Shown here: one piece after another, positions 9,323 through 42,535 of the stretch
Numbering within the stretch: the stretch's first letter is position 1
How the letters are laid out: the number at the start of each line of letters is the position of its first letter
Source: Planctomycetia bacterium
GTDB lineage: Bacteria > Planctomycetota > Planctomycetia > Pirellulales > JACPPG01
Length of the DNA: 64,000 nt
Assembly (NCBI GenBank): GCA_016191115.1
Contig: JACPPG010000055.1
Coordinates: forward strand, 25,018-89,017
Direction of reading: 5' to 3'
The notes under the pieces: generated by a model
Database searches by the model: none
What the model was told of the DNA's origin: nothing
What the model saw: only the letters and a program-made list of their open reading frames with translations
Made by a program: the position numbers and the translations under genes

Positions 9323-9325
9323 GCG

Positions 9326-12283
9326 ATGCTCGACCATCAAAGAATTGTTGACGACATCCGCAGCGCCATGTACTCGGTGACGCCCGAGTCGTTGGACATG
9401 CTGCGCTTGGCCGTCGCAGATTATTCGGTCGCATGTGATGAGACGAACGAGCGGTTGCGGCAATGCAATTCGCTCCTCAAGCAGGGACTGCGGAGTGAGG
9501 CGATCCAGGCGTGCGAGGTCGAGCCGAACCTGCTCGACGTAGTGGCAACGCTTGACTTTGCTGAGCGCGACCAACTGGTGGCTATTACCCAGCAAAATGG
9601 CCTCGCGGTTCCGCCAGGATTGTCGATGGAGGTGGCGTCGGAACTCAATGAGGCGTACGCGATCCAGGCGCCCCTCGAATCGCTGTTGCGTCAGCACCGT
9701 CTGCTGGCAATCGCGCGCGGGCCGCTGGCCCCGAGGCTCAAGACGCTGCGGTCGATCGCGCGTCTCGACAAGCACAACTTCGTCTGGCAGGACGATGTCC
9801 GGCTCTTTGAAAAGGAACGTCTCAAGGAGATTCAGCGCGAGGCGAATCAGGCGGCAAAGGCGGGCGAAGTGGCCGTGCTCGACTCTCTGGCCGAGGAGTT
9901 GGCCGACAAGCAGTGGCAGCAAAAACCTCCGAAGGAGCTAGTCCAGGGAGTCGGTGAAATCGCGCATAGGGTCCGCCACAAGCAGACACGCAAGGAGCTT
10001 GAGGAGTTGGAGCCCGCGCTCAACAGCGCCTTTGCTGCATTCGATGTCGAGGAGGGGCGACGCTTGCGCGGGCGATGGAACGAATGCGTCGAGATTCTCC
10101 CACTCGAAGGCGACCCGCTCGCCGACCGTGTCGCGCCGGCGCTCGACTGGCTGCGCGAACAAGACGAGCAGGAAGAGCGATTGGGGAATCATGAGGCGTG
10201 CGTGGGCGCTTTGGAGTTTGCGCTTGATCGCCATGACCACACCATCGCCGAGCTGGAGCGCTTGTACCATGCGGCCGTGCGTCACGGCCACGATCTGTCG
10301 TCGTTCCTGGAGCGGCGCTATCAGGCCAAGATCAAGGGGTTGGAGTTTGCGGCGCGGCGGCGATCGGTGCTCATCATCACGTCGGTAGTGAGTGTCGTTG
10401 TGCTAGTCGCCGGCGTGCTGGCTGCAATGGCCTGGATGCATCACCGCTCCAATGAACTCGCCGGTCACGTGGCCGCGCTCTCTCAGTTGATTACCGACGG
10501 GAAGCTGCACGAATCGCAAAAGTACGCCGACGAATTGACTCAGTCGTCACCGCGGATCGCACACAGCCCAGAAATCGAGAAACTGGTGGTTCGACTCGAC
10601 GAGGATGTGAAGAAGGAACAGTCGCGGCAAGAGCAGTTCCAGCATGCGATTGCGCGGGTGAAGGCCGCCGGTTTTGACGAGCCGGATCACGATGCCCTGA
10701 AACGCGCCGAAGAGTCGGCTAAGACTCCGGCGGAGCGCACCGAGGTGGCCGAAGCGAAGGAGAGCATCGCCAAAGCGTTGCGAGAGAGGCAGGCAGAACG
10801 GGACAAGGCATTTTTGGCGGACATTGACGGCCTGGCCGACAAGGTCAAACAACTGGAAGGGGAGTTAGAGAAGTCCGGCGCGGACGATGATGCAGCGAGC
10901 GTGCAGCACTTTGCTCAGCTTCGAGCCGAGCTATCGGCGTTGAACGCCCGCGGGGAGCTGGTGACGCCGGCGGTGCGAAATCAGTTGAAACCATTGTCGA
11001 CGCGCCTGTCGGCATTGGAGGAAATGGTTTCACGCCATGCGAAGGCACAGGCGGCGCTCAATCAACTGATGAAGGCTGTTGGCGACCCCCAGGCGTACCA
11101 GATGGCCCTGCAAGATTACGTCAAACAACATCCCGAAAGTCCCCACGCCGCGTCCTTTCAGCATGTGAGCGCCGAAGCGCCGTTGTGGGAAGGCATGCAA
11201 CGGTGGGATGCTTTCGCCGTTGACTTGGGAAAAGCGGCCCGCGACGGCCTGACGCCCGCCGAAGGGAAAACGCTTCAAGACGGGGCTGACAAGCTGTTGA
11301 AGGAACTCGGCCAGTTTCCGCAGGCCGGGACGCTGCGAACCGCGCTTCCGCATCTGAAATCCGTTGTCGCCCGAATCGGCAGCGACGGCCCGCTCCACAA
11401 GCCGCTTGTGACGCTCTTCAACGATCGGCTGATTCATAACGTTCAGATGATTGAACACAAGGACGGAAGGCGCTGGTACACGGACAAGGAGCCAAGTGTT
11501 CGCGCGGACGGCGTGGACATCGAATTCCTGGCCGGGTTCGACTACTCGCATAAGCACAAGCCTCTTACATCTGGTGAAATCGCCAGTCGAGATCGAGCGC
11601 CGCAAGCGGTCGTCGCCGACAAGGTTCTTGCGGAACTCGGAAAGCTGGACGCAGCCACGCGCGAGGGAGAGTGGGAGCAGCACTTCGCCAACATCTTGGT
11701 TGCAATTTGCGAAGAACAGCGCATGGAACCGATCCTCAAGATTGCCCTGTTGAAGCGAGTAGTCCCAGTCGCCTGCGAGGGGTCCGACGTGTTGCGCTTG
11801 GCGCTGGCGAAACATCAGGAGGCACTGGAAGGCTCGGCCGTCAACGCGCTAGCGCCTTGGATGCTGCCGGAGTTTCCGGAGAAGGACAAAGATGCCAGGA
11901 AGGCCGTCCTTGAAGAGCGAGGACGCGCCAAGGGCGAACTGGAGGCCCTCGCCGACCTGCCCACTACTGTTCAGGTCGCGGCGAAAAAGCCCCCGCCCGT
12001 TCTCCGGCTGAACGAATATCGGTGGATCGGTCTGCTGGTCAAAGACTCCAAGGGCGGATGGACATGCATGATCCGTCCTAATGCTACGACCTCTCCAGGT
12101 GCCTTGTATGTCGTCGAGCAGCCAGCGGGACAGAAGCCCGTGAACATCTCGCCTATCGGCCACCTCGAAGACGGGAAGCCGCACCTTGATTCATTCAAGC
12201 CGGCCCTCCTCATGGAAGGGCGTCCGATCTATTTGCTGATGACTGCCGGCAAGGACCAGCAGGCCGCAGCGGTTCATCGATAG
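9326..12283 (+). CDS. 985-aa all-helical bitopic membrane protein with extensive coiled coil (operon gene C)
   Basis: ATG lies 3 nt after the gene B stop. About 345 aa of helical cytoplasmic region, then a positive-inside TM (ARRRSVLIITSVVSVVVLVAGVLAAMAWM), then ~600 aa with charged heptad-like stretches (EDVKKEQSRQEQFQHAIARVKAA, ADKVKQLEGELEKSG...). No enzymatic motif seen. Confidence 0.75.
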   Translation: MLDHQRIVDDIRSAMYSVTPESLDMLRLAVADYSVACDETNERLRQCNSLLKQGLRSEAIQACEVEPNLLDVVATLDFAERDQLVAITQQNGLAVPPGLSMEVASELNEAYAIQAPLESLLRQHRLLAIARGPLAPRLKTLRSIARLDKHNFVWQDDVRLFEKERLKEIQREANQAAKAGEVAVLDSLAEELADKQWQQKPPKELVQGVGEIAHRVRHKQTRKELEELEPALNSAFAAFDVEEGRRLRGRWNECVEILPLEGDPLADRVAPALDWLREQDEQEERLGNHEACVGALEFALDRHDHTIAELERLYHAAVRHGHDLSSFLERRYQAKIKGLEFAARRRSVLIITSVVSVVVLVAGVLAAMAWMHHRSNELAGHVAALSQLITDGKLHESQKYADELTQSSPRIAHSPEIEKLVVRLDEDVKKEQSRQEQFQHAIARVKAAGFDEPDHDALKRAEESAKTPAERTEVAEAKESIAKALRERQAERDKAFLADIDGLADKVKQLEGELEKSGADDDAASVQHFAQLRAELSALNARGELVTPAVRNQLKPLSTRLSALEEMVSRHAKAQAALNQLMKAVGDPQAYQMALQDYVKQHPESPHAASFQHVSAEAPLWEGMQRWDAFAVDLGKAARDGLTPAEGKTLQDGADKLLKELGQFPQAGTLRTALPHLKSVVARIGSDGPLHKPLVTLFNDRLIHNVQMIEHKDGRRWYTDKEPSVRADGVDIEFLAGFDYSHKHKPLTSGEIASRDRAPQAVVADKVLAELGKLDAATREGEWEQHFANILVAICEEQRMEPILKIALLKRVVPVACEGSDVLRLALAKHQEALEGSAVNALAPWMLPEFPEKDKDARKAVLEERGRAKGELEALADLPTTVQVAAKKPPPVLRLNEYRWIGLLVKDSKGGWTCMIRPNATTSPGALYVVEQPAGQKPVNISPIGHLEDGKPHLDSFKPALLMEGRPIYLLMTAGKDQQAAAVHR

Positions 12284-12306
12284 TGCGCAACGCAGGATCG
12301 ATCAAA

Positions 12307-13212
12307 ATGGCAGACCAGTTGTACATTCGGGTTCGCGGCCGCGTGCTCGGCCCGTACGATCGAGACAAGCTCCAATCGCTGGTCAAGCGCGGCCAACTTG
12401 GGCGCCTTCACGAGGTCTCTGAGGACGGCGTCGCTTGGGTGCGGGCAACGAACTTCCCTGAGATATTCGTGATGCCCTCGGTCGCGGTAGCCGGCCCCTC
12501 GGTGAAGGCACCACCCGCTGCCAGTGAAGTCCCTGGGTACGCGATCGAGCCAGACACGTCCGCGGCGGCTCCGACGGGCCAGACCTGGTACTACACGAGC
12601 GGCGGTGCCCAGCTTGGGCCAGTCGATTTCGCGTTTCTGCAAAAGCTGGCTGCGACGGGTCAACTTGGTCCATCCAATTTGGTGTGGACCGAAGGCATGG
12701 CCGAGTGGGCCGCACCTGGCGCCGTGCCCGGCTTGAACGCGCCGCCCGCCACGGGCCGGTCTGCTACGGCTAACGTTGCCACCGAGTCAGGGAACGCCGT
12801 CACGCCTGGTGTGTGTCGGGCGCTCGCCGGATCGCGGCGCTGGATTCTCTTTCTCGCCATCGTGACGTTTGTCTACTGCGGATTCTATGCCGTCTTGGGG
12901 GTCTGGGCGGTCGTATTCGGCTTTTCGTCGGACATTGCGGCTATCGTAGGTGAGGGTCTCTTCTTCCTCTCGACCGCTGCGGTCGGTGCCGCTGCCGGAG
13001 TGCTGCTGCTCTTCTATGCCAATCGGATTGGGGTCCTACAGTTCCGCCGCGATTTCCAGCAGTTGGAATCGACGCTTGAGGCGGCGCGCTGGTTTTGGGT
13101 ATATGCGGGCATCATCCAGATTGCCTTCCTGATATTCCTGTCGGCGTTGAGCGTCTGGGCGATGGCCGTCGGCGGCGCAACGGTGCGGGCGAGCGCCCGA
13201 TCGCTGTTCTGA
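12307..13212 (+). CDS. double GYF_2-domain polytopic membrane protein (operon gene D)
   Basis: ATG at 12307; the track ORF starts at a GTG at 12283 overlapping the gene C stop. Two GYF_2-like modules (LYIRVRGRVLGPYDRDKLQSLVKRGQLGRLHEVSEDGVAWVRATNF and TWYYTSGGAQLGPVDFAFLQKLAATGQLGPSNLVWTEGMAEWAAPGAVPGL) are followed by ~4 hydrophobic helices. Confidence 0.75.
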   Translation: MADQLYIRVRGRVLGPYDRDKLQSLVKRGQLGRLHEVSEDGVAWVRATNFPEIFVMPSVAVAGPSVKAPPAASEVPGYAIEPDTSAAAPTGQTWYYTSGGAQLGPVDFAFLQKLAATGQLGPSNLVWTEGMAEWAAPGAVPGLNAPPATGRSATANVATESGNAVTPGVCRALAGSRRWILFLAIVTFVYCGFYAVLGVWAVVFGFSSDIAAIVGEGLFFLSTAAVGAAAGVLLLFYANRIGVLQFRRDFQQLESTLEAARWFWVYAGIIQIAFLIFLSALSVWAMAVGGATVRASARSLF

Positions 13213-13236
13213 GGGATCGTTCGGAGCTAGCGCACA

Positions 13237-14103
13237 ATGCCTCAGGATGCAACGCCCCCGAACAACGACGTACCACTCGCCTGGGCACGTGGCGACATCG
13301 AGCAGCGCCTTGGCTTCCACGGCGGGCGCTATACGCGCGTCAATACGCTGCTTTCGTTTCTGATTGGTGCTGGATTGACGGTCCTATTTTTCGGCGCCTT
13401 GTTCCCCTTCCGAGGAACGAACGTTGCCGCGACCTTCATGGACCGAGGGCCGACACCTTACGTGACCATGCTGCTGGCGTGGTGGTCGGTGGCGATCCTG
13501 TTCTTGAAGTCGCGCAAGCTCGCGTTTCAGCAACGGGCGCTGGCGTACCAGGTTGTGCCGGAGAGTCACGATTTCGTGCTGTCCGCCGCGACCGCCGACC
13601 AGGTGCTGGAGCGAATCTACGCCACGGTAGACGACCCGAAGAAGTTCGTGCTCTTTAACCGAATCGTCATTGCGCTCTCGAACTTGAGGAACCTCGGCCG
13701 GGTGTCCGACGTGGACGACATCCTCCGTTCGCAGGGGGACGGTGAAGAATCGTCGATGGAGACCAGCTATTCGATCGTGCAGGGGTTTGTTTGGGCGATC
13801 CCGGTGCTGGGCTTCATTGGCACGGTATTGGGCTTGTCCGAAGCCATCGGGGCATTCGCGAGTGTGCTTGGTTCGGCATCGGAGGTGTCGGAAATCGCGG
13901 GTGCATTGCGCGGCGTCACCGCCGGCCTCTATACCGCCTTCGACACGACGCTCGTGGCGCTTGTTGCCGCGCTCATCATTCAGATCGTTCTCACGTTCTT
14001 GAAAAAAAACGAAGAGGAATTCCTTGATGCTTGCGCGGAGTATTGCGTCCGCAACGTGGTTGGGCGTTTGCGGGTGATGCCCTTCGAGACTGAGGTGGAA
14101 TAG
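13237..14103 (+). CDS. MotA/TolQ/ExbB-family proton channel subunit (operon gene E)
   Basis: Four predicted TMs. The C-terminal half, FVWAIPVLGFIGTVLGLSEAIGAF...LRGVTAGLYTAFDTTLVALVAALIIQIVLTFL, matches the conserved GxxGTVxGxxxAF ... TTxxGLxVA core of MotA_ExbB proteins. Confidence 0.85.
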   Translation: MPQDATPPNNDVPLAWARGDIEQRLGFHGGRYTRVNTLLSFLIGAGLTVLFFGALFPFRGTNVAATFMDRGPTPYVTMLLAWWSVAILFLKSRKLAFQQRALAYQVVPESHDFVLSAATADQVLERIYATVDDPKKFVLFNRIVIALSNLRNLGRVSDVDDILRSQGDGEESSMETSYSIVQGFVWAIPVLGFIGTVLGLSEAIGAFASVLGSASEVSEIAGALRGVTAGLYTAFDTTLVALVAALIIQIVLTFLKKNEEEFLDACAEYCVRNVVGRLRVMPFETEVE

Positions 14104-14105
14104 AA

Positions 14106-14927
14106 ATGGCCAGACGCCACCGATCCTCGCCCTTCTCGCTATTCAGCTTTCAGGACATCATCACGTCCGTCACTGGCATCATCATCCTTCTGACGCTCAT
14201 CTTGGCCTTGGAGCTGGTGACTCGCAAACCGTCTGCACAGGGGGGCAGCTCTCCTGACAATTCCGAACAGTTGAGGGAAAGCATCGCGGAAGCCGCCGCA
14301 GAGAGCGCGCAGCTCGAAGAAGCGCTTGAGAAGCGAACTGCTAGGGTGCAAGAACTGGCGGCCGCCTCTCCACAGCAGCTTGCCCGCGAGAAACGCGACG
14401 TTGAACAGGAAGTACAGCGTCTTGAAGCGGAGGTCCAGCAACTCGTGCGGCAGGCAGAAACCACCTCGCGCGAGAAAAAAGAGGCCGTCGCAAAAAGTGA
14501 GGATCGCGAACTCGACCGTAAGGAACTGAAGCAGCGTGAGGCGACATTGCGATCCTTGGCCGAAAAACTCAAGGACTTGAAGCGCAAAGATCACCTCATC
14601 TACAACCTCAGTCGCGACGCGGGGAAGCGGGCTTGGCTGGTCGATGTCTCGCCAGACAAGTTGGCCGCGGCGCCGCTCGGTGAGGCAGTGCCACCTACTG
14701 TATTTGAGGAGTCGTCGGCTTTCGCGCGGGCTCGCTCGTTCATCGATTTCACCAAGCGGCGAGACCCAAAGACCGAGTATTTTGTCTTCCTTATCAGACC
14801 GGCTGCCGTCGAGACGTTTGCCGACATTCGCTTGAAGCTTGAGGGTTCGGGCTTTGATATCGGGTTTGATGTTATCGGTTCGGGCCAGACCGTTCTTGAC
14901 CCAAAGACGGGGGCTTCGATCCGATGA
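14106..14927 (+). CDS. ExbD/TolR-like single-pass subunit with long coiled-coil insert (operon gene F)
   Basis: Basic N-terminus MARRHR, then FSLFSFQD(17)IITSVTGIIILLTLILAL, with the Asp preceding the TM as in ExbD D25/TolR D23. About 130 aa of coiled coil follow (QLEEALEKRTARVQELAA...VQRLEAEVQQLVRQ). The C-terminal YFVFLIRPAAVETFADIRLKLEGSGFDIGFDVI resembles the ExbD periplasmic beta-alpha-beta unit. Confidence 0.65.
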   Translation: MARRHRSSPFSLFSFQDIITSVTGIIILLTLILALELVTRKPSAQGGSSPDNSEQLRESIAEAAAESAQLEEALEKRTARVQELAAASPQQLAREKRDVEQEVQRLEAEVQQLVRQAETTSREKKEAVAKSEDRELDRKELKQREATLRSLAEKLKDLKRKDHLIYNLSRDAGKRAWLVDVSPDKLAAAPLGEAVPPTVFEESSAFARARSFIDFTKRRDPKTEYFVFLIRPAAVETFADIRLKLEGSGFDIGFDVIGSGQTVLDPKTGASIR

Positions 14928-15835
14928 GTAGACGCAAGCGCCAACCCGAAAGCAGTCTGGAGCTGCTGCTGGACACGATTTGCAACACGTTCGGTGGCAT
15001 CCTCTTCTTGTCGATCTTGATCGTCGTCCTGTTGCAGATGACGGGCGGTGCACGATCGAAGACGGCCGAGCCGACCTTGTCGGCTGCTGAGTTGGCGGAT
15101 TTGCGTCGGCAGCACGCCGAGGCACTCCGGCATTTGGAGACAGTGCAGGCTGCGATTGACAAGCAGCGAGACCTGCTCGACCAGTTCGCGACTGCGGAGA
15201 ATGTGGACCTGCTCCGGGAGCTGCAAGCCCTGGAGCAAACGCGGGAGTCGCTGCGGTCGCACCGTGCGGCGACCATCTCCCAAATCGCCGAAGCACAGGC
15301 CAGCGTCGATGCCGTTGAGAGTGACCTCGCCGAACTTGACCAGCATCAGAAGGAACTGGAGCAGCAAGTCGCCGTCGCCGAACGATTGCTTCAGGCCGAG
15401 GTTGCGTCTCGGACCACCGCAGCCCGCCTGCCTCGTCAGCACGCTACCGGGAAACAAGAAGTCGGGGTCTTGGTCCGTTACGGCCGGCTGTACCTTTGGC
15501 ACAAATACGATTCCCACGGGCTTCGGCTCGGTCTTAATTTCGACGACATGGTGGTCGTCAAAGAACATGGGACGCGACTGGAAACTGCGCCGAAGCCGTT
15601 TGCCGGCGTGGTCTTGGAGAAGGGAGTCGACGCCGAGCGACGAATCCGGGAGAAGCTCTCCGGCTTCGATCCACGCACGATGTATGTAGCAGTGGTCATT
15701 TGGGAAGACTCGTTTGCGCAGTTCCAGATTCTAAAGAACGTGCTGGTCGAGCGCGGATTAGAGTATCGTCTCATGCCGACCGAAGAAGGCACCGAGATCA
15801 GCGACCACGGCGGCACCGGCAGCCGCGTCCAGTGA
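14924..15835 (+). CDS. second ExbD/TolR-like single-pass subunit with coiled-coil insert, paralog of gene F (operon gene G)
   Basis: ATGA overlap with gene F. MSRRKR...SLELLLD(17)TICNTFGGILFLSILIVVLLQM, then coiled coil (LRHLETVQAAIDKQRDLLDQ...ELDQHQKELEQQVAVAERLLQ). The C-terminal MYVAVVIWEDSFAQFQILKNVLVERGLEYRLMP is ExbD-like. Confidence 0.65.
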   Translation: MSRRKRQPESSLELLLDTICNTFGGILFLSILIVVLLQMTGGARSKTAEPTLSAAELADLRRQHAEALRHLETVQAAIDKQRDLLDQFATAENVDLLRELQALEQTRESLRSHRAATISQIAEAQASVDAVESDLAELDQHQKELEQQVAVAERLLQAEVASRTTAARLPRQHATGKQEVGVLVRYGRLYLWHKYDSHGLRLGLNFDDMVVVKEHGTRLETAPKPFAGVVLEKGVDAERRIREKLSGFDPRTMYVAVVIWEDSFAQFQILKNVLVERGLEYRLMPTEEGTEISDHGGTGSRVQ

Positions 15836-23575: not shown

Positions 23576-23661
23576 GACGTGTCTCCTTCGACGGTTGTGG
23601 ACTGACACCGCCGCGCAGGACATCTTGTTTTTAAATATTCAAAAAATCGCCCGATCGGGAA

Positions 23662-23687
23662 GACCGCCGGGGTAAACCCGGCGGCTC
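23662..23687. terminator. conserved GC hairpin (family copy 1)
   Basis: GACCGCCGGGGTAAACCCGGCGGCTC: 8-bp stem CCGCCGGG/CCCGGCGG with loop GTAAA, just downstream of the epimerase gene. A near-identical copy in inverse orientation lies at 33461-33488. Confidence 0.45.
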
Positions 23688-23717
23688 GCAAATATCCACT
23701 GCCACCGCTCCCACCGC

Positions 23718-24656
23718 CTACTTCCTACTGCCTTCCGCCTGCTCCGGCAATTCCGCCAGCACTGCCGGCAGTCCGGCGTCGAACGTTGCGTATCGCGGCT
23801 GCCAGCCGAGTTCGCGGCGGGCCTTGTCGCAACGCAGACGCAAGCCGGACTCGACCGCCTCGATCGTTGGATAGCCGAGGAACAGTCCCATCAGCCAGCC
23901 GGGAGCGCGGCCGACGTGTGGCCGAGCAAGCGCGTCGGCCAGTCGATCGAGAACCTCGCGCCGCCGGAGCGGAGCTTCGTCCCCCAGGAAGTAGCCCTCG
24001 CCCGCGCGGCCGTGCGCGAGTGCCAGCGGGTAGGCTTCGCCCACGTCGTCGACGTGGACCATCGTCCAATAGTTGTCGCCGCGGCCGACCATGCGATAGC
24101 GGCCGGCGCGCACCAGCTCGACCATCATCTTCATGAAGCCGCCGGCGCCATACACAAAGCCGGGGCTGATCACCTGCACGTGCAGGCCGTTCCTGCGATG
24201 CAACTGGGCCAGCTCGTCGACCATCTCCGCATGTCCACGGGCCAAAAGGCAAGGGCATTGCGGCAGCGTCTCGTCGATCCAGTCGTCGCCATAGCGGGCG
24301 TGGGTCAGCGCGCCGCTCGTGTAGATAAACGGTTTTGCTTGCGCGGCGCAGGCCTGGGCGAGCGTGCGAGTCATCAGCGCATCGGAGCGGTGCATGTCGG
24401 CGATCTGCCGGCGGTTCCAACGCCCGTTCGACACCTGCTGGGCGGCGTGAACCACAGCTTCGACCTGGGCGACAAGCGGTTGGTATGTCTCCGGCTGCCA
24501 CATGTTCCCGATGGCCATGTCGGCGCCGGTATCAACGAGGGCGCGTCCTTTTCCGGCATCGCGCACAAGGCCCAGCACCTTATGCCCATGGCGAAGCAAT
24601 GCGCGGACGATGGCCGAGCCGACGAAACCCGTTGCACCTGTGACCAAGACTCGCAT
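23718..24656 (-). CDS. NAD(P)-dependent epimerase/dehydratase family protein
   Basis: N-terminal Rossmann motif MRVLVTGATGFVGSAIVRALLRHGH. 312 aa, SDR-extended layout. Confidence 0.85.
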   Translation of the reverse strand: MRVLVTGATGFVGSAIVRALLRHGHKVLGLVRDAGKGRALVDTGADMAIGNMWQPETYQPLVAQVEAVVHAAQQVSNGRWNRRQIADMHRSDALMTRTLAQACAAQAKPFIYTSGALTHARYGDDWIDETLPQCPCLLARGHAEMVDELAQLHRRNGLHVQVISPGFVYGAGGFMKMMVELVRAGRYRMVGRGDNYWTMVHVDDVGEAYPLALAHGRAGEGYFLGDEAPLRRREVLDRLADALARPHVGRAPGWLMGLFLGYPTIEAVESGLRLRCDKARRELGWQPRYATFDAGLPAVLAELPEQAEGSRK

Positions 24657-24660
24657 GTCT

Positions 24661-25074
24661 CTACCACGGCTCGTAGCAGTCGTAGTTGCGCTGCGCCACG
24701 ATGCGCCCGTCGCGGAATTCGAGAAAGATAGCCAGGTAAGCCTTCAACTCGCTGCCGGCTGTTAGCTCGCCGAACGCCGCGGCCAGCTTGCCCGTCCACA
24801 CGACCTCCAAGGCCACGTGATCGCCGCGGGCGACGGCGTTGCGGACCTCGTACCGCTGCGCGGAGAGAACGTGCGGTGCGCGGCGGGCGCCTTCGAGCAT
24901 CGCCGCCAGGCCGCGCTTTTGGCCACGCGTCACGAGTCGATTGGGAAATTCATGCTGCTCGATGGCCGGATCGAGAAACGGGCGAATCGCTTCCGGCGGA
25001 TCGAAGCGCTCGAGCGCTTCGAGGAAGCGATGCGCGGTGGCCAGGTTCTGTTGTTCGACAGACGGCGAGGACAT
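24661..25074 (-). CDS. NTF2/SnoaL-like small protein
   Basis: 137 aa. ...ATAHRFLEALERFDP...VVWTGKL...AIFLEFRDGRIVAQRNYDCYEPW is a typical SnoaL-like cone-fold pattern. 4 nt upstream of the epimerase gene. Confidence 0.6.
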   Translation of the reverse strand: MSSPSVEQQNLATAHRFLEALERFDPPEAIRPFLDPAIEQHEFPNRLVTRGQKRGLAAMLEGARRAPHVLSAQRYEVRNAVARGDHVALEVVWTGKLAAAFGELTAGSELKAYLAIFLEFRDGRIVAQRNYDCYEPW

Positions 25075-25129
25075 AGGACACTGTTTTCCGTTCGCCCAAA
25101 GGAGAAATCAAGCGTCCAAATGCGATGGC

Positions 25130-25286
25130 CAGGGCCGTTCACAGATTCAAGCTTGCCGGCGGCGCACCGGCGGGAAAGTGGGACAGGCACCAAGACGCAA
25201 CGTTGGTCTGAAAGGACTTGCGCTGTTTATGCTCGGAGCCAGTCCCATTTTCCCGCATCGCCATTTTGAAAAACAGAATGGCCCTG
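25130..25286 (+). mobile_element. MITE-like element copy 1 (157 bp)
   Basis: Termini CAGGGCCGTTC ... GAATGGCCCTG (11-bp TIR). Flanked by a perfect 10-bp direct repeat ATGCGATGGC (25120-25129 and 25287-25296). Internal inverted repeat GGCGGGAAAGTGGGACAGGC / GCCAGTCCCATTTTCCCGC. Confidence 0.85.
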
Positions 25287-25379
25287 ATGCGATGGCGCGG
25301 CCGCTTTCAGAAACGTCGTCCACCGCGCTTGCGAAGCCCAGGACCGGCGCCCCCTGGCAGCACGGGGGCACGAAACGAA

Positions 25380-26879
25380 TCAGGTCAAACCCGGAATCGG
25401 GTCGCCGCTATAGATCTGGTGCGGGCGATCGACTTCGTCGTGCCACGCCGCCGTGGCCGGGATGCCCAAGGCCTGATAGATCGTGGCCGCCATGTTGTCC
25501 GGCTTTTGCGGCGCGGTTGCCGGGTGGCCGCCCGAGCGATCCGACGAGCCAATGACCGTCCCGCCGTGGACGCCGCCGCCGGCGAAGAACACCGTCTGCA
25601 CGGCACCCCAATGGTCCCGGCCCGGCTGCTTCGCGCCGGGCAGCGTGGAAATCTTCGGCGTCCGGCCAAACTCGCCGGCCATGACGATCAAGGTGCTGTC
25701 GAGCAAGCCTTCCGCTTCAAGGTCGTCGAGCAACGCCGAGAGCGCCCGATCGGTCGGTGGAAAGAGATAGTCCTTGAGGATCGGGAACATGCTCTGGTGC
25801 GTGTCCCATGTTTCGTTGTTGCCCAAGTTGACCTGCACCAGGTTCACGCCGGAGGTCACCAGCCGCTTGGCCATCAATAGCGACCAGCCGAAGACGTTGC
25901 GGCCGTAGCGGTCCTGCACGTCGGGTTCGGCGTTCGTAACGTCGAACGCGCGATACACGCGCGGATCGGCCAAGAGCGAGATCGCGTCTTGCCGGTAGCG
26001 GTCGAACTTCTCGTTCGTGGCCAGCCGCTCGAGCCCCTCCTGCTGGCAGCCCACTTGCTCGAGGAGTTGCAACCGGCGCTGAAAACGGTCGCCGGCCAGT
26101 CCCTCGGGCAGCGCCAAGTTGGGCGCCTGGAAGACGTATCCCTGCGGGTTCTCGCCACCGCGCTCGAAGTGGAAACCGTACCGCGGCCAGGCCCCGTAGG
26201 AGTTGGCGTTGAAGCGGCAAGCCTCGACGAACCACGGGTCGCGCTGCACCCCCATCAGGCCGCCGAACTGCCCCGGGATCACGCGGCCGGTGCGATGGAT
26301 CAACTGCTCGGGCAGGACGACCGCGGGCGGCAGGTTGTCGCGGCGCGGCGTGGCGGCGCCGGCCACGGCCGCGATCGACGGCCAGTCGGACGGCTTGGGC
26401 TTCGCGGAATCGAAGCCCTGCGGAATCGCCGACCGTCCGGTGAGCATCATCATGTGCCCGACCGAGTGGTCGTTCGACGGATGGGTCAACGACCGGACCA
26501 GCGCCCACAGGTGGCTGCGTTTGGCCAATTCGGGCAGGTGTTCGCTGATGTGGATTCCGGGAGTCCGCGTGGCGATGGGGCGAAACTCGCCGCGAATTCC
26601 GTCCGGAGCGTCGGGCTTCAGGTCGAAGCTCTCTTGCTGCGACAGCCCGCCGGACAGAAAGATATAGATGACGCGGGCGGCCTTGGGTGTTGCGCGAGGC
26701 GTCGCGGTATCCGCGGGCTGGGCGCCTGGGATATTTGCCCCGGCAGCCCGCGCGCCAAGCGCCCGCAGCGCCGCCAGATGATTCATACCCAACCCCAACA
26801 GCCCGATCGCGCCGGCTTGAATGGCGGCGCGGCGGCCGAGGCGTGGATGCTCTGGGACGGATGCCGGCCCGTGGTTCAT
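25380..26879 (-). CDS. DUF1501 (sulfatase-like) protein with Tat-type signal
   Basis: RLGRRAAIQAGAIGLLGL signal, then ...VIYIFLSGGLSQQESFDLKPDAP..., ...GEFGRTP..., ...GRDHW.... Start taken at MNHGPAS (26879); the longer track ORF runs into the upstream gene. Confidence 0.85.
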   Translation of the reverse strand: MNHGPASVPEHPRLGRRAAIQAGAIGLLGLGMNHLAALRALGARAAGANIPGAQPADTATPRATPKAARVIYIFLSGGLSQQESFDLKPDAPDGIRGEFRPIATRTPGIHISEHLPELAKRSHLWALVRSLTHPSNDHSVGHMMMLTGRSAIPQGFDSAKPKPSDWPSIAAVAGAATPRRDNLPPAVVLPEQLIHRTGRVIPGQFGGLMGVQRDPWFVEACRFNANSYGAWPRYGFHFERGGENPQGYVFQAPNLALPEGLAGDRFQRRLQLLEQVGCQQEGLERLATNEKFDRYRQDAISLLADPRVYRAFDVTNAEPDVQDRYGRNVFGWSLLMAKRLVTSGVNLVQVNLGNNETWDTHQSMFPILKDYLFPPTDRALSALLDDLEAEGLLDSTLIVMAGEFGRTPKISTLPGAKQPGRDHWGAVQTVFFAGGGVHGGTVIGSSDRSGGHPATAPQKPDNMAATIYQALGIPATAAWHDEVDRPHQIYSGDPIPGLT

Positions 26880-26968
26880 GTGCCGACCTCGTGGCATGGC
26901 GGGGGACGCAGGCGGGATACGCCACCACGCTAACAAATGGGCGGCCGCGGTGCAAGAAAACCAGGCGG

Positions 26969-27694
26969 CTACACCGCCACGCCGACCACGTGCCGCGCGA
27001 TGTCGAGCGCCGTCGTGTACAGCATCAAGCCTGCCAGGCACAGCCAGCCGGTGATGGCCAGTGGGTAGTGCAGCCGGGTGGCGCGCGGGTGCAGCTTTTC
27101 CAGGAGCGAGAGGACGATCTTGCCGCCATCCAGCGGCGGCAGTGGGAGGAGATTCAAGATCGCCAGGTTGAGGCTGATGATGATCGCGAATCGCGCCAGC
27201 CCGAGCGCGCCCGCCTGGGCGAATTCACCGCCGATCGCCACGATCCCGACCATGCCGCTGAGTTGATCCGGATGGCTGAACGCGCGCGGTAGCGAGGCAA
27301 GGAGCGTGGCCGTGATATTCGCCGTCTGGATCCACGGTTTGACGAACAGCCCGGAAAGCGTGGCGCCATCGACCGCCGCGTTCATCGCCGCGTAGAGCAC
27401 TACCGGCAAGAGCAGGTTGGCCACCGGTCCCCCGAGCGCGAACAGAATCCGCCCGGCGACCGGCAAGCGAAAATAGTCTTCCTCATTCTCGATGGCCGGC
27501 AGCACGTAGCCGCCGAGCGGAACCGGTGCGATCCAGTATTCCGTCCGGCCGATCTTCTTCCCCCACAGCTTCGGCCCGAAGCCAATCGAGAAGCGGGCCA
27601 CCGGGATGCCGGCGATCCACGCCGCCACCAGGTGCCCAAGCTCGTGGATCAAGATCAACCCGCCGATCAAGAGTGCGATGAGGAGGTAGTTCAT
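26969..27694 (-). CDS. M50 site-2 protease family membrane metalloprotease (no PDZ)
   Basis: LILIHELGHLVAAWIAGIPVARFSIGFGP (HExxH within TM1), polytopic, with LNLLPLPPLDGG near the C-terminus. Confidence 0.8.
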   Translation of the reverse strand: MNYLLIALLIGGLILIHELGHLVAAWIAGIPVARFSIGFGPKLWGKKIGRTEYWIAPVPLGGYVLPAIENEEDYFRLPVAGRILFALGGPVANLLLPVVLYAAMNAAVDGATLSGLFVKPWIQTANITATLLASLPRAFSHPDQLSGMVGIVAIGGEFAQAGALGLARFAIIISLNLAILNLLPLPPLDGGKIVLSLLEKLHPRATRLHYPLAITGWLCLAGLMLYTTALDIARHVVGVAV

Positions 27695-27842: not shown

Positions 27843-29759
27843 GTGATGAAACGAGCTTCGATGCCCAGAATCGCGACCCGTTTGGCGGCACTCGCGGTAG
27901 CATGCGCGCTCGTGCAACCCACGGCGATGCTGGCCGACGACGCAAGCGGCGCCGCCGAGACGAGCGACCTTTGGTCGTTGGCCCCGGTCGTGAAGCCCAA
28001 GGTCCCTGACGTCCAGCGCGCGGACTGGTGTGCGACGCCGATCGATCGGTTCATTCTTGCCCGGCTCGAGGCCGATCACATGGAGCCGGCGCCCCCGCTG
28101 GCCCGCGATCGGCTGATCCGCCGCCTCTATTTCGACCTGTGGGGCCTGCCCCCTTCGCCCGAGGACGTGCAGGCGTTCGTGGCCGACCAGGCGCCGGACG
28201 CCTACGAGCGGCTGGTCGATCGGCTGCTGGCCAGTCCCCGCCACGGCGAGCGGTGGGCCCGCTACTGGCTCGACGTGGTCCGCTTCGCCGAGACCAACGG
28301 GTACGAGCGCGACGCCGAGAAACCCTCCGCCTGGCGTTACCGCGACTGGGTGATCAGCGCGCTCAACGACGACATGCCGTACGACCGGTTCGTGCTCGAA
28401 CAACTGGCCGGCGACGAGCTGCCGGACGCCACTGAAGAGACCCTGGTGGCCACGGGACTTCTGCGCGTCGGCACATTCGACGACGAGCCGAATGACCCCT
28501 TGGCCTACAAGTACGAGCAGCTCGACGACCTGGTGAACGCCACGGCCACCTCGTTTCTGGCGCTTACGTTGCGGTGCGCCCGCTGCCACGACCACAAATT
28601 CGACCCGATCCTGCAAACCGACTACTACGCCTATTTGAACTTTTTTACCGCCGGCAAAGCAGCCGAAGGCGGCGTGCTGGGCTACACCGACAGCGGACGC
28701 GACGCTCCGGAAGTGAAGCTCCTGGGCGGCGGCGACCCACGCCGGGAAGGGGACGTCGTGCCGGCGCGGTTCTTGTCGTTCTTGCCGAAGCTCGCGCGAC
28801 CGGTCGAGCCGCCACCGGCCGACGCCAAGACGACGCACCGCCGCACGCAGCTTGCCCGTTGGATCGCCGATGGGGCGAACCCTCTCACGCCGCGCGTGGC
28901 GATGAATCGTCTGTGGCTGCATCATTTCGGCGAAGGACTGTGCCGGACGCCGGACAATTTTGGCGTGATGGGAACGGCGCCCACGCACCCGGAGCTCCTG
29001 GACTGGCTGGCGGCCAACTTCGTCGAGCACGGCTGGCGCGCCAAGCGGCTGCACAAAATGATCCTCTTGTCCAGCACGTACCGCATGGATTCGATGCATC
29101 CGCGGCAGGAAGAGTACGGCCAGCGCGACTTCGCCAACGAGCACTGGTACCGCGCTAACCGCCGCCGGCTGGAGGCCGAGCCATTGCGCGACGCCATGCT
29201 GGCCGCGAGCGGGCAGTTGAACCTCAAGGCGGGCGGGCCCGGCTTCTACCCCAAGGCCAGTAAGGAAGCACTCGAAGGGCTCTCGAAAAAAGGGGCCGAG
29301 TGGAAGGAATCCCCGCCCGACGAGCTGCGCCGGCGCAGCATCTACACGTTCACCAAACGGTCGCTCCTGTTGCCGCTTTTGACCGTGTTCGACTTTTCCG
29401 ACACAACGGCGCCGTGCGCCCAGCGTAACGTGACGACTGTCGCGCCGCAGGCCTTGGCACTGCTGAATAACGCGTTCGTACACGAACAAAGCGAGGCGGC
29501 GGCCCGACGCGTCGCCGCCGACGCCGGTGCGGATGTGCCAGCCCGCGTCGACCGCGCCTGGTGGCTGGCGCTATCGCGAGCGCCGACGGCGGCCGAGCGC
29601 GAGACGGCCGAGGCCCACCTGGCCGCGCAGCGCGAGCGGTTCGCGGCTAAGGCCGCGGCGGGTGGGTCGGTGCCGCATGGGGGTGACCCTGATCACATGG
29701 CGCTTGTTTCGCTCTGTCACGTGCTTCTGAACCTCAACGAGTTCGTCTACGTCGATTGA
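27843..29759 (+). CDS. DUF1549/DUF1553 (PSCyt2/PSD1) protein
   Basis: IDRFILARLEADHMEPAPPLARDRLIRRLYFDLWGLPPSPEDVQAFV...SPRHGERWARYWLDVVRFAETNGYE, CARCHDHKFDPI, and a C-terminal ...LLNLNEFVYVD. Confidence 0.88.
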   Translation: MMKRASMPRIATRLAALAVACALVQPTAMLADDASGAAETSDLWSLAPVVKPKVPDVQRADWCATPIDRFILARLEADHMEPAPPLARDRLIRRLYFDLWGLPPSPEDVQAFVADQAPDAYERLVDRLLASPRHGERWARYWLDVVRFAETNGYERDAEKPSAWRYRDWVISALNDDMPYDRFVLEQLAGDELPDATEETLVATGLLRVGTFDDEPNDPLAYKYEQLDDLVNATATSFLALTLRCARCHDHKFDPILQTDYYAYLNFFTAGKAAEGGVLGYTDSGRDAPEVKLLGGGDPRREGDVVPARFLSFLPKLARPVEPPPADAKTTHRRTQLARWIADGANPLTPRVAMNRLWLHHFGEGLCRTPDNFGVMGTAPTHPELLDWLAANFVEHGWRAKRLHKMILLSSTYRMDSMHPRQEEYGQRDFANEHWYRANRRRLEAEPLRDAMLAASGQLNLKAGGPGFYPKASKEALEGLSKKGAEWKESPPDELRRRSIYTFTKRSLLLPLLTVFDFSDTTAPCAQRNVTTVAPQALALLNNAFVHEQSEAAARRVAADAGADVPARVDRAWWLALSRAPTAAERETAEAHLAAQRERFAAKAAAGGSVPHGGDPDHMALVSLCHVLLNLNEFVYVD

Positions 29760-29772
29760 ACGGTCTCGGACC

Positions 29773-31257
29773 ATGACGCAATCCCACCAAAAGCGACTGT
29801 TCCCCTGCGGCGTCACCCGCCGCGAGTTCGTGTGGGAGATGGGGGCCGGCTTCGCGGGGCTAGCGCTGGCCAGCTTGCTCGACGGCGACGGCTTCTTTGC
29901 GAGGCACGCCCGCGGCGGCGAAGCGAGCGCAGCCACCGGCGCCGCAGCCGGTCCGCTCGCCCCGAAGCCGCCGCACTTCAAGACACCGGCCAAGAGCTGC
30001 ATCTTCCTGATGATGAACGGCGGGCCGAGTCACGTCGACACGTTCGATTACAAGCCCGGCTTGAAGAAGTACGCCGGCCAGTCGCTCCCCGCGGACAAGA
30101 AGTTCACGAATTCCGGCAATCGCAAGATGGGCTTCCTGACCCCGGCCTGGCGCGAGTTCCAACCCGGCGGCACAAGCGGCTTGATGATCTCGGACTATTT
30201 CCCCCGCGTCCGCGAGCATGCCGATCGCCTGGCGCTGATCCGCTCGTGCCACACCGACAGCCACGCGCACGGCTCGGCGCTCGTGGCCATGAACACGGGC
30301 AGCACGTTCATCGGCAAGCCGTCTCTGGGGAGTTGGGCCGTCTACGGGCTGGGGACCGAAAACCAGAACCTGCCCGGCTACGTGGTGATCCTCGACAAGC
30401 GTGGCGGTCCGATCAGCGGTCAGCCGAACTGGGCGGCCGGCTACATGCCCGCTTCGTACCAGGGGACGCTGTTCCGCCCGGTGGGGGACCCGGTGCTCGA
30501 CCTGCGCGGCCCCGCGCACATCGACCGCGCCATCCAACGCGAGCAGTTGGACGTGCTTGCCAAGCTGAACCAGCAGCACCTGGACGAGCGCAAAGGTGCT
30601 AGCGACCTGGCGGCACGGATCGCCAGCTACGAATTGGCCTTCCGCATGCAGTCGGAAGTGCCCGAGGCGGTCGACCTGAAGCAAGAAACGCAGGAGACGC
30701 TTGATCTGTACGGCGTCGGCCGCCAGCCGACCGACGAGTTCGGCCGCAACTGCCTGGTCGCGCGGCGGCTGGTCGAGCGCGGCGTCCGCTTCGTCCAGCT
30801 TTACTCCGGCGGCGGGCACCTGGAGGAAACGTGGGACGCGCATGAAAGTGTCGAGAAGAACCATGGCCGGCACGCCGCCGAAGTCGATCAGCCGATCGCG
30901 GCGCTCTTGTCCGATTTGGAGCGCCGCGGCCTGTTGCAAAGCACGCTGATCCTGTGGGGCGGCGAGTTCGGCCGCATGCCGTTTGCCGAAGGAGAAGGCG
31001 CGCCGGGCCGCAACCACAATCCCTACGGTTTCACCATGTGGCTGGCCGGGGCCGGCGTCCGCGGCGGCACGTCCTACGGCGAAACCGACGAGTTCGGTTT
31101 CGAGGCCGTCGCCGACAAAGTCCACCTGCACGACGTCCACGCCACGCTCCTGGCCTTGATGGGCCTGGACCACGAGCGATTGACGTACTTTCATCAGGGC
31201 CGCGACGAACGAATGACCGATGTCTACGGCCGGGTCGTGAAAGAAGTCATCGCGTAG
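29773..31257 (+). CDS. DUF1501 protein
   Basis: TRREFVWEMGAGFAGLAL signal, then ...CIFLMMNGGPSHVDTFDYKP..., ...GGEFGRMP..., ...GRNHN.... 13 nt downstream of the DUF1549/1553 gene. Confidence 0.9.
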   Translation: MTQSHQKRLFPCGVTRREFVWEMGAGFAGLALASLLDGDGFFARHARGGEASAATGAAAGPLAPKPPHFKTPAKSCIFLMMNGGPSHVDTFDYKPGLKKYAGQSLPADKKFTNSGNRKMGFLTPAWREFQPGGTSGLMISDYFPRVREHADRLALIRSCHTDSHAHGSALVAMNTGSTFIGKPSLGSWAVYGLGTENQNLPGYVVILDKRGGPISGQPNWAAGYMPASYQGTLFRPVGDPVLDLRGPAHIDRAIQREQLDVLAKLNQQHLDERKGASDLAARIASYELAFRMQSEVPEAVDLKQETQETLDLYGVGRQPTDEFGRNCLVARRLVERGVRFVQLYSGGGHLEETWDAHESVEKNHGRHAAEVDQPIAALLSDLERRGLLQSTLILWGGEFGRMPFAEGEGAPGRNHNPYGFTMWLAGAGVRGGTSYGETDEFGFEAVADKVHLHDVHATLLALMGLDHERLTYFHQGRDERMTDVYGRVVKEVIA

Positions 31258-34732: not shown

Positions 34733-34756
34733 AGCCGTTGACACCCCGGGAAATGA

Positions 34757-34912
34757 CGGGCCATTCTGTTTTTCAAAATGGCGAGGCGGGAAAATGGGAC
34801 TGGCTCCGAGCATAAACAGCGCAAGTCCTTTCAGACCAACGTTGCGTCTCGGTGCCTGTCCCACCTTCCCGCCGGTGCGCCGCCGGCAAGCTTGAAGCTG
34901 TGAATGGCCCTG
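34757..34912 (-). mobile_element. MITE-like element copy 2 (156 bp, inverted orientation)
   Basis: CGGGCCATTC...GAATGGCCCTG. Perfect 10-bp flanking direct repeat CGGGAAATGA (34747-34756 and 34913-34922). Confidence 0.85.
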
Positions 34913-35034
34913 CGGGAAATGACGGGCGGCTTGTCCCATCGTCTCATTTCGTGGACGATCACGGGTAGCGGGCGCGCGCGTGCGATCCCTCGGAACGGAC
35001 CTTGAACGCCTTCCCTGAGCTAGCGGCTCGGACG

Positions 35035-38734: not shown

Positions 38735-40945
38735 TCATTCGACGTACACAAACTCGTTGGCGTTCATGAGGGCCAGGCAGAAATCCACGAGCGCCGCGGT
38801 GGCGAACGGGTCGGTGGAAGGTTCGCAGCCGGCCGGCTGCGCCAAGCGAGCTGTCTCGCGCGCTTCATGGCGAAGCCGCTCGGCTTGCCGAGTCAGAAAC
38901 TCCGCGCCGATCTTCGCCTCTTCGCCGCTCGGGCGGCGGCCAAAAACTCGCAGATAGGCGTCTTCGATCCGCCGCGCATCGTCGGTCGGCTGCGCGCGCG
39001 GCAACGCGCCCGCGAGATATCGGGCGCAGTCCAGACTGAACTGGGAGTTGAACAGCACCAACGACTGCGTGGCCGTCGTCGACTCGTGCCGTCGCGGGCA
39101 GCTCGCGTTGGCATCCGGCCGATCGAAGACGTCGAAGAGCGGATAACGCAGGTTCCGGCGGACGAACAAATAGATGCTGCGGCGGCGATGGTCTTCGGCG
39201 TTTTCGGTGACGCGCCATTGATCCTTCAAAAGCGTGCCGGTCACTTCCGGCGGCAACGGTGGTCGGACACCTGGGCCTCCGTGGCGCGGCGACAGCCGGT
39301 CGCAAGCGGCGAGCATCGCGTCGCGGATCGCTTCGCCCGAGAGCCGCGTCCGCCGCCTCCGCCATAGAAGCTCATCTTCTGGATCGTTCGCCGCGGCGGC
39401 GTTCCATGTCGCGCGGGCCGCTTGTGCCCGCTCGGCCGGCCAATCGGCGTCGAAGGCGCTCGCCGCCAGTTGATACGTCTCGGACGTCACCAGCAGCTTG
39501 TGCATCTTTTTCATGCTCCAGCCGTCGGCGACGAAGCGCTCGGCCAGCCAATCCAGCAGCTCCGGATGCGTCGGCCGGTTGCCCATCACGCCAAAATCGC
39601 TCGCGCTGGCGACCAAGCCTGCGCCGAAGTGCCACTGCCAGATGCGATTCACGATAACGCGGGTCGCCAGCGGATGGTCGGGCCGCGTCAGCCACGCGGC
39701 CAGCGCGGCGCGAGGCCGATTCGCCGCGGCCGTCGGCTGGCTGTCGCCCTCCGCCACCACGCGCGGGAAGCCGCATGACACCACTGGCCCCTTCTGCCGG
39801 AAATCGCCCCGCACGTACAGATAGCTGTCGCGTGGCTGGCCGTCGCGCATCACCCGCGCTAGCGGCACTTCGGGCAGTTTCGGCAGCGCCTTCACGGCTT
39901 CGACCAGGGCAGCGTGCTCTTTTCGCTCGTCGTCGGTCAGTCGGGCGAGCTGATCCTTGAGCGACGGCTGCACGTCCGGATTCTCGTCGCGAAAGCGGCT
40001 CGCCCCCAATTCCTCGAGCTCGCGGAGGCGCTCGGCGCGCTGCCGATCTTCCACCGGTAGCGCGTCCTCGGCCGCCTGACGCGCGGCCAGCTCGGCGACG
40101 CTTGGGATCGGGTGATCGCGGAAACAATCGGCCGAATCGAGAAACGCACGCAGCCGATAGAAATCGTGCTGCGAGATCGGGTCGTACTTGTGGTCGTGGC
40201 ACTGCGCGCAGCCGACTTGCAGCCCCAACAGCGCCGAGCCGACCGTGGCCGTCATCTCGTTCAGCACGTTGTGCCGCCGCTCTTCCGGCAGATTCAAGTC
40301 GGGCATGTCCGGCCCGCACAAGAGAAAGCCCGTCGCCACGGCCGCGTCGGGATCGCCGGGCACCAGCTCGTCGCCGGCGATCTGCAGCCGGACAAACTCG
40401 TCATAGGGCATGTCGCGCGCCAGGGCGCCGATGACCCAATCGCGATACCGCCAGGCGTTCGGGCGGAGCAGGTCGTGCTCGAAGCCGTCGGTCTCGGCGA
40501 ACCGCGCCAGATCGAGCCAGTGCTGGGCGAACCGCTCGCCGTACGCCGGTGAGGCGAGCAGCCGGTCGACCAACTTTTCGTACGCGTCGGGCGATTCATC
40601 GTTTTCGAACGCGGCGAGCGCTTGCGGCGTGGGCGGCAAACCCGTCAGATCGAACGATAGCCGCCGCAAGAGGGTCGCCTTGCCGGCCCGCGGCACGGGC
40701 TCGATGCGGCGTTGTTCGAGCGCCGCCTTCACAAAACGGTCGACAGGACTACGGCTCCACCGCGGATCGGCCACCGTCGGAACGGCCGGCGACGAGAGCG
40801 GTCGATACGCCCAGTGGGCCCGATCGGAATCGGTGATCGGCGGTTCGGCGGGAGCTGCCGGCGACGCATCGGCCCCGGCGGCCCGCAGGCACGCGACTGC
40901 CACCAGCAGGAACACGGACAGCAGAGCCAGCCGAAGACCCGTCAC
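38735..40945 (-). CDS. DUF1549/DUF1553 (PSCyt2/PSD1) protein
   Basis: VDRFVKAALEQRRIEPVP...LLRRLSFDLTGLPPTPQALAAF...SPAYGERFAQHWLDLARFAETDGFE, CAQCHDHKYDPI, and a C-terminal LMNANEFVYVE. Confidence 0.88.
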   Translation of the reverse strand: MTGLRLALLSVFLLVAVACLRAAGADASPAAPAEPPITDSDRAHWAYRPLSSPAVPTVADPRWSRSPVDRFVKAALEQRRIEPVPRAGKATLLRRLSFDLTGLPPTPQALAAFENDESPDAYEKLVDRLLASPAYGERFAQHWLDLARFAETDGFEHDLLRPNAWRYRDWVIGALARDMPYDEFVRLQIAGDELVPGDPDAAVATGFLLCGPDMPDLNLPEERRHNVLNEMTATVGSALLGLQVGCAQCHDHKYDPISQHDFYRLRAFLDSADCFRDHPIPSVAELAARQAAEDALPVEDRQRAERLRELEELGASRFRDENPDVQPSLKDQLARLTDDERKEHAALVEAVKALPKLPEVPLARVMRDGQPRDSYLYVRGDFRQKGPVVSCGFPRVVAEGDSQPTAAANRPRAALAAWLTRPDHPLATRVIVNRIWQWHFGAGLVASASDFGVMGNRPTHPELLDWLAERFVADGWSMKKMHKLLVTSETYQLAASAFDADWPAERAQAARATWNAAAANDPEDELLWRRRRTRLSGEAIRDAMLAACDRLSPRHGGPGVRPPLPPEVTGTLLKDQWRVTENAEDHRRRSIYLFVRRNLRYPLFDVFDRPDANASCPRRHESTTATQSLVLFNSQFSLDCARYLAGALPRAQPTDDARRIEDAYLRVFGRRPSGEEAKIGAEFLTRQAERLRHEARETARLAQPAGCEPSTDPFATAALVDFCLALMNANEFVYVE

Positions 40946-42408: not shown

Positions 42409-42535
42409 GACGAGCCCTCGCGCAAAGCCAGACGCACACAGAGGAACCGCCATCCAGGCTATCGCCCCGCGGCGGGAATCTCAAGGAGATTCGACAACGT
42501 GGGTCGCCGTGCGCGGCTGCAAACCGCGGCTTCGT

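Follow-up and report, generated by a model that had tools for sequence, protein, structure and literature searches.

Results

Genes and repeats at the locus

The window, i.e., the whole stretch of 64,000 nucleotides that was analyzed, belongs to a MAG deposited at NCBI as "Planctomycetia bacterium" (locus tags HYX69_; proteins MBI2826556 to MBI2826584). The genes flanking the repeats described here belong to DUF1501, PSCyt1/PSCyt2/PSD1, and similar planctomycete families. Four DUF1501 genes (25380-27041, 29773-31257, 40942-42453, and about 52900-54477) and three PSCyt2/PSD1 genes (27843-29759, 38735-40945, and 54753-57899) all lie within 33 kb. Elsewhere in the window, a run of plus-strand genes at 4614-15835, in a stretch of lower G+C content (57-61%), encodes a weak match to Double-GTPase 2, a 1086-aa GAP1-N2/GAP1-M protein with Ig-like domains, a 985-aa protein without a Pfam family, a GYF_2 protein, a MotA/ExbB-like protein, and others. 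This run looks like a GTPase-centered conflict or defense island.

Six copies of a short element lie in the window. Copy 1, our reference, occupies 25130-25286 on the plus strand (157 bp); it begins with CAGGGCCGTTC (25130-25140), ends with GAATGGCCCTG (25276-25286), and carries the two arms of an inner hairpin at 25170-25194 and 25232-25256. Copy 2 (34757-34912, minus strand, 156 bp) has the right terminus ...GGCCCG, from which one T is missing, and copy 3 (46964-47120, plus strand, 157 bp) has the left end CAGGGCTGTTCA. Copy 4 (52743-52879, plus strand) is shortened to 137 bp by a 20-bp internal deletion of TGCCGGCGGCGCACCGGCGG. The left terminus of copy 5 (54578-54734, minus strand, 157 bp) is degenerate (TAGGGCCTTTC), and copy 6 (60391-60536, plus strand) is missing its right 11 bp together with the right flank. 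An earlier note on this DNA had listed six copies, and BLASTN of copy 1 against the window, as well as a self-comparison of the window, returned exactly those six at the same coordinates. The self-comparison of the window revealed no second short dispersed repeat family; the remaining self-matches were the paralogous DUF1501 and PSCyt2/PSD1 genes and two local imperfect palindromes unrelated to the element, at 58469-58534 (66-70 bp, 83% identity) and 52283-52367 (about 85 bp, 77% identity).

The six copies share 94-97% pairwise identity, occur in both orientations, and sit in six different contexts. Variation among them is all but absent from the right half of the element. Four diagnostic substitutions are common to copies 3 and 6, and one is common to copies 4 and 5; therefore, the family has subfamily structure, with copies 3 and 6 forming one subfamily. 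The claim that all copies are intergenic holds approximately, the exception being an unassigned ORF at 59798-60472 that reaches 82 bp into copy 6. DUF1501 genes directly adjoin three of the copies, and also a relative of the element found in a metagenome (L044, see below); this adjacency is probably due just to the local density of such genes. An independent short-read assembly (Logan, SRR12113392, contig L003) is 100% identical to window positions 23660-25155 and ends 26 nt inside copy 1. Because this contig reproduces the left junction of copy 1, the junction is not an artifact of the present assembly. The element is a repeat that breaks short-read assemblies.

Terminal inverted repeats, flanking duplications, and coding content

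The outer 11 bp of the element read CAGGGCC(G/A)TTC at one end and GAATGGCCCTG at the other, and the two are complementary at 10 of 11 positions. The longer terminal inverted repeat is imperfect (~16/24), with TTCAA in common further in. The earlier note had assigned these ends to each full copy; terminal inverted repeats (TIRs) of 11 bp are indeed present overall, but copies 3, 5, and 2 deviate from the exact letters. Specifically, the left end of copy 3 starts with CAGGGCTGTTC and reads CAGGGCTG, the left end of copy 5 starts with TAGGGCCTTTC and reads TAGGGCCT, and copy 2 lacks the T mentioned above. Allowing at most one mismatch, CAGGGCCRTTC occurs 13 times in the window as against 3.3 ± 1.9 times in shuffled sequence.

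All five full copies (5/5) are bracketed by copy-specific 10-bp direct repeats, as previously proposed, four of them matching at 10/10 positions and one at 9/10. For copy 1, ATGCGATGGC stands at 25120-25129 and again at 25287-25296 (10/10). The duplication of copy 2, TCATTTCCCG in the orientation of the element and CGGGAAATGA on the plus strand, lies at 34747-34756 and 34913-34922 (10/10), whereas that of copy 3 differs at one position (CGCCGTCCGC at 46954-46963 vs. CGCCGTGCGC at 47121-47130; 9/10). Copy 4 is flanked by GGTTTTCGCC at 52733-52742 and 52880-52889 (10/10). Copy 5 is flanked by GCGGACCGTG in element orientation, i.e., CACGGTCCGC on the plus strand, at 54568-54577 and 54735-54744 (10/10). 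The duplication of copy 6 is unreadable because the right end and the right flank are lost. The chance of a single 10/10 flank match is about 1e-6. The reading of these 10-mers as putative insertion footprints of transposition is supported by the sequence. Target sites have no consensus other than G/C richness, G or C being slightly enriched at duplication positions 1 and 10 (50/61 at each). Relatives reached through the 90%-cluster homologues of the DUF1501 gene at 29773-31257 (L004 and L005) are 70-79% identical, and their contigs are not syntenic with the window at the insertion sites; the organism itself is represented in one sample only.

The earlier statement that the window contains no transposase was borne out, since no Pfam transposase domain was detected in the ~50 ORFs scanned; tblastn with ISAs1 transposases against the window gave no match either. 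The sole frame reading through the element encodes a 52-aa peptide, and 157 bp is too short for a transposase. With six dispersed copies of 137-157 bp, the family lies within the size range of MITEs (under about 600 bp, multiple dispersed copies). The proposal that these are MITEs agrees with everything seen here: the element is short and dispersed, has TIRs and copy-specific 10-bp duplications, and is without coding capacity of its own.

Copies elsewhere in the genome

A six-frame peptide query derived from the element matched five proteins (P0001-P0005) among 5.8 billion, all of them encoded on other contigs of the same MAG. The MITE-derived segment, ~40-50 aa long, forms the C-terminal tail in 4/5 of these proteins and is internal in P0004. 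The proteins concerned include a WES/condensation-domain protein, a DUF5615 PIN-like protein, and an ABC permease. Since six copies lie in the window and five protein segments elsewhere, the genome holds at least 11 copies. The MITE sometimes inserts at gene 3′ ends, and at least five annotated proteins can be flagged as carrying MITE-derived segments that are insertion artifacts. Outside this MAG, a distant-mode search of the PLSDB plasmids gave no match to the element, a scan of metagenomes with the 21-mer of its right end gave none, and a scan of a genome collection with the right-end 20-mer gave, among the matches listed, only two, both by chance.

Miniature elements with the same ends in metagenomes

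Metagenomes were also scanned for CAGGGCCRTTC followed, after 110-140 nt, by GAAYGGCCCTG. This pattern returned 99 loci with 100 elements, where a rough hand estimate of the chance expectation is ~10 matches. Flanking 10-bp repeats are perfect in 53 of the 100 elements and match at 9/10 positions in three more; a few elements have 9-bp repeats. The 53 perfect cases are indirect evidence that the 10-mers beside the window copies were duplicated on insertion. Grouping the interiors by sequence gave 32 clusters, including a 61-member family of 133 bp. In 24 of the 32 clusters the two ends match at ≥15/20 positions, with an extended consensus of approximately CAGGGCCRTTC(A/C)(G/A)TT(C/T)T, and these 24 clusters have no internal motif in common. 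The left end of the window element leaves the class consensus after position 12 (ACAGA vs. (A/T)GTTT). The shared ends thus mark out a class of miniature elements that is widespread.

The sole homologues of the window element among the 100 are L044 and L097, which are 159 bp long, 75% identical to it, and flanked by perfect duplications. Their contigs have 65-66% G+C, and L044 lies beside a DUF1501-type gene (as read by eye). In another locus (L040, 660-1154), two 133-bp MITEs in direct orientation surround 229 bp, and the 10-mer AGCCTTTGAT borders the pair on either side, as would be expected had the two MITEs transposed together as a 495-bp composite.

One further element with the same ends is chimeric. 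The 452-bp element of L026 (1636-2087) consists of 36 bp of one end, a piece matching Nterm_IS4, a remnant of an ISAs1 C-terminus, and the other end; no duplication flanks it. The ISAs1 remnant was missed by an HMM built from three ISAs1 sequences and was detected by direct comparison with the Skermanella protein. One and the same truncated N-terminal fragment of an IS4-like transposase (62-130 aa, with Nterm_IS4 only) recurs in 44 protein clusters (P0015-P0058); in five contigs (L125-L129) its position downstream of HupE/UreJ genes is identical.

ISAs1 insertion sequences share the terminus

The earlier note named no transposase family; we take the combination of a CAGGG terminus and a 10-bp duplication to suggest the ISAs1 family. 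Members of this family have inverted repeats of 14-22 bp starting with CAGGG and a 10-bp direct repeat (PMC11946415). ISArsp11, for example, has the left inverted repeat CAGGGCTGATGCAAAGTCG (CAGGGCTGATGC...) and a 10-bp direct repeat (PMC6305408). The window element has this terminus, and the family definition was also checked on L088, L106-L117, L131, and L132. ISAs1 duplications measure 8-10 bp, typically 10 bp, and they are 10 bp long both at the window copies and at the verified ISAs1 elements.

The earlier note had suggested a search for a longer, transposase-bearing element with such ends and 10-bp duplications. In the 64 kb of this genome that were analyzed, no autonomous element with exactly these ends was found. 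Complete ISAs1 elements with near-identical ends were found on plasmids and in metagenomes. The element on plasmid pSR-1 of Skermanella rosea (1275 bp) has the ends CAGGGCTGTTCAGTTCTC and a perfect 10-bp duplication, GGTCCGGATG; that on pACMV4 of Acidiphilium multivorum (1290 bp) has the ends CAGGGCTGTTCAA(T/C)GCT and the perfect 10-bp duplication CCTCGATTCC. These complete, PGAP-annotated ISAs1 elements have ends of the form CAGGGCTGTTCA(G/A)..., and the left end of copy 3, CAGGGCTGTTCA, is identical to the Skermanella and Acidiphilium ISAs1 ends at 12/12 positions. A relative of 1286 bp occurs in ten metagenome loci, six of which (6/10) have perfect 10-bp duplications.

Four contigs (L048, L085, L010, and L119) start inside an insertion sequence whose ORF ends in ...ALNVLRAKGVQNISLALYANAVSFNQLLALGTA*, directly followed by the terminus CAGGGCCATTCAGTTCTAATTATG. 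The first 19-23 nt of this terminus equal the ends of the 133-bp family, and its first 11 nt equal the right end of the window element; the ISAs1-type C-terminus runs into CAGGGCCATTCAGTTCTAA, an 11/11 match to that right end. The C-terminus of the L048 type is 58% identical (E = 2e-5) to the PGAP-annotated ISAs1 transposase of Skermanella rosea. A scan of viral contigs with the extended terminus gave seven matches. Five have neither a partner end nor a transposase; L119 starts inside an ISAs1 element whose transposase C-terminus leads into this end, and the match in L124 lies at the contig start. The interior of the window element, compared with four ISAs1 elements, has no homology to them beyond the inverted repeat. 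This weakens the notion that the MITE is a deletion derivative of ISAs1, not the notion that it is mobilized by ISAs1, because the true parent could differ from the elements compared.

ISAs1-family elements also lie near 133-bp MITEs, ~100 bp away in L064 (897-1129) and ~8 kb away in L088 (8261-9540). They belong to the right family but have different ends (CAGGGGCTACGC and CAGGGGCTACGCATGAAA in L088; CAGGGCTTTCGC and CAGGGCTTTCGCACC in L064). The differing ISAs1 ends near 133-bp MITEs indicate that several ISAs1 lineages coexist in the organisms of L064 and L088.

In one ISAs1 clade (L108-L117 at 2357-3642, L106 at 4236-5519, and L130-L132), two ORFs regularly share the transposase between them, one of about 196 aa and, in a different reading frame, a second of about 179 aa. 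Almost all of its best 120 protein matches are short N-terminal ORFs of 185-244 aa that contain only that domain, and on several plasmids (of Acidibrevibacterium, Rhodovastum, Skermanella, and Mesorhizobium) the PGAP annotation reads "ISAs1 family transposase (x2)." The split may reflect a programmed frameshift rather than decay. Two of these copies (L116 and L117), ~34 kb apart and in opposite orientation on the same contig (ctg9048), share the 10-mer GAGGGGGCCC, which flanks one copy on its left and the other on its right; this is the pattern left when recombination between two copies inverts the DNA between them.

The inner hairpin

The second, internal inverted repeat that the earlier note had described is real, forming a helix of 22 pairs between 25170-25194 and 25232-25256. 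As RNA, the plus strand folds with a predicted -77.2 kcal/mol (z = -7.5) and the minus strand with -72.1 kcal/mol (z = -5.5). Rfam gave no match in the window at gathering thresholds; a permissive search returned only the serC leader (18.1 bits vs. a cutoff of 35, E = 0.066), a chance match. No sigma-70 promoter or intrinsic-terminator consensus was found inside the element. Among the six copies, covariation amounted to 0 double changes, no better than in shuffles, a comparison without power since the copies are too similar. In the alignment of the window element with L044/L097, the hairpin arms are 86-96% conserved, whereas the loop (~50%) and the left subterminal region (~35%) have diverged, and one compensatory G-C to A-T change can be seen by eye. 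The arms may have been conserved as subterminal transposase-binding sites or as a co-opted structure, or the pattern may have arisen by mosaic recombination.

Discussion

The present study describes a new MITE family in an uncultured planctomycete. We consider it highly probable (about 0.88) that its members are non-autonomous DNA transposons with ISAs1-type ends and duplications, presumably moved by an ISAs1-family transposase. The ends, the duplications, the dispersed copies, the transposase-free window, and the occurrence of the same terminus on ISAs1 insertion sequences were all observed directly. From these, a mechanism can be proposed. An ISAs1-family DDE transposase encoded elsewhere in the genome would recognize both ends in trans, and insertion at staggered cuts 10 bp apart, followed by repair, would yield the 10-bp duplication; the movement itself might be either cut-and-paste or copy-and-paste. 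The interior would be unrelated filler folding into a long hairpin. Since the copies differ by 3-6% and form subfamilies, the family spread fairly recently. Several copies are probably immobile by now because of the 20-bp internal deletion, the lost end, and the mutated termini. Effects on the host are incidental, namely broken short-read assemblies and translated segments in annotated proteins.

A different view of the hairpin has to be weighed against the idea of mere filler. The MITE might have been co-opted, so that the hairpin serves as an RNA or DNA module (a terminator, an mRNA stabilizer, an insulator, or extra transposase-binding sites), and selection keeps the copies intergenic. The hairpin would then be a selected functional module carried by the transposon, a reading that derives from the conservation of the arms while the loop and the left subterminal region diverged. 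In line with it, the fold is far stabler than shuffled sequence, the arms have persisted in L044/L097 at an overall identity of 75%, the right half hardly varies among the six copies, and a compensatory change is visible. However, these relatives are only two and may represent one lineage, and the six copies themselves show no double change. Moreover, no Rfam family was matched, the consensus of a sigma-70 promoter or an intrinsic terminator is absent from the element, and the copies stand in both orientations relative to the neighboring genes. MITEs commonly have long palindromic interiors, and such interiors also appear in several other families found in our metagenome scan. Hence we regard co-option as unlikely, and hold it equally doubtful that the hairpin is anything other than filler. 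If it were true, the hairpin would be a second transposase-binding pair or a structured RNA/DNA that changes the expression of its neighbors, and the family would be a dispersible regulatory cassette, many of whose neighbors are planctomycete DUF1501 and PSCyt/PSD1 genes.

Two further alternatives dispense with ISAs1 altogether. The repeats might be small RNA genes, or a host repeat akin to REP/BIME, that were dispersed by recombination and not by transposition, as their palindromic, mostly intergenic nature and the strong predicted structure on both strands would allow. Recombination, however, does not create 10-bp duplications, and copy-specific ones are present at 5/5 full copies and at 53 elements elsewhere; ISAs1 insertion sequences have identical ends, and Rfam is silent. 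The related suggestion in the earlier note, a structured RNA gene with a fixed genomic context, does not fit, as the six contexts all differ and Rfam had no match. Spread of RNA genes or host repeats by recombination is highly improbable. A transposase of the IS4 family with an Nterm_IS4 domain might instead mobilize the element. The hint came from the 452-bp element of L026, which has the same ends and an interior fragment matching Pfam Nterm_IS4 (E = 7e-9). Some IS4 subgroups make 10-bp duplications, which would also accord with the data. Yet the junction of the fragment with the terminal 36 bp is a breakpoint within its own ORF, and at its opposite end the L026 element codes for an ISAs1-type C-terminus. 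Furthermore, no CAGGGCC-type end was found near Nterm_IS4 ORFs in seven loci (L106, L107, and L125-L129), and 44/44 of the homologues found are truncated remnants of 62-130 aa. An IS4-family parent, rejected on account of the internal breakpoint, seems very improbable indeed, and the fragment reads as captured filler DNA. Capture of filler would explain why elements of the same-ends class have unrelated interiors.

Mobilization by an ISAs1-family transposase thus remains our preferred explanation, and it gives the family some wider interest. The data point to recent transposon activity in an uncultured planctomycete. In addition, some two dozen unrelated miniature elements from many metagenomes have one ISAs1-type terminus in common, and nearly all of them have 10-bp duplications as well. 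A limited literature search found no paper on an ISAs1-derived MITE or on a planctomycete MITE, and a search with the terminal sequences returned unrelated primers only; the ISAs1-type miniature elements apparently form a broader set that is not described in the literature found. To our knowledge, the ISAs1 family of insertion sequences has received little study, and its mechanism is not known. The miniature elements offer natural substrates for defining the end requirements of ISAs1 transposases. The family described here is a useful catalogue entry and no surprise.

Several bacterial MITEs are known, including the Correia elements of Neisseria, Nezha of cyanobacteria, MaeMITEa-h of Microcystis, and RPE of Rickettsia. 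Like them, the window element is short and non-coding, with TIRs, target duplications, and many dispersed copies; the palindromic interior and the occasional read-through into annotated proteins are further points of likeness. In contrast, the Correia elements have a TA duplication and 26-bp repeats, and other bacterial MITE families pair with other insertion-sequence families. With the ISAs1 insertion sequences (ISAs1, IS1358, IS1548, the E. coli H-repeat/YhhI, and ISArsp11), the window element shares the CAGGG start and the 10-bp duplication. Its outer 11-12 nt are identical to, or one base off, the verified ISAs1 ends, be it CAGGGCCATTC on the L048-type elements or CAGGGCTGTTCA on those of Skermanella and Acidiphilium. 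Unlike these insertion sequences, it measures 157 bp instead of 1.2-1.4 kb, is without a transposase gene, and is not self-mobile. It also resembles the 133-bp family and ~22 others from the metagenomes (L006-L104). Their interiors are unrelated to that of the window element, except in L044 and L097, whereas the outer 11 bp, a similar extended inverted-repeat consensus, and a duplication of 10 bp (occasionally 9 bp) are common to all.
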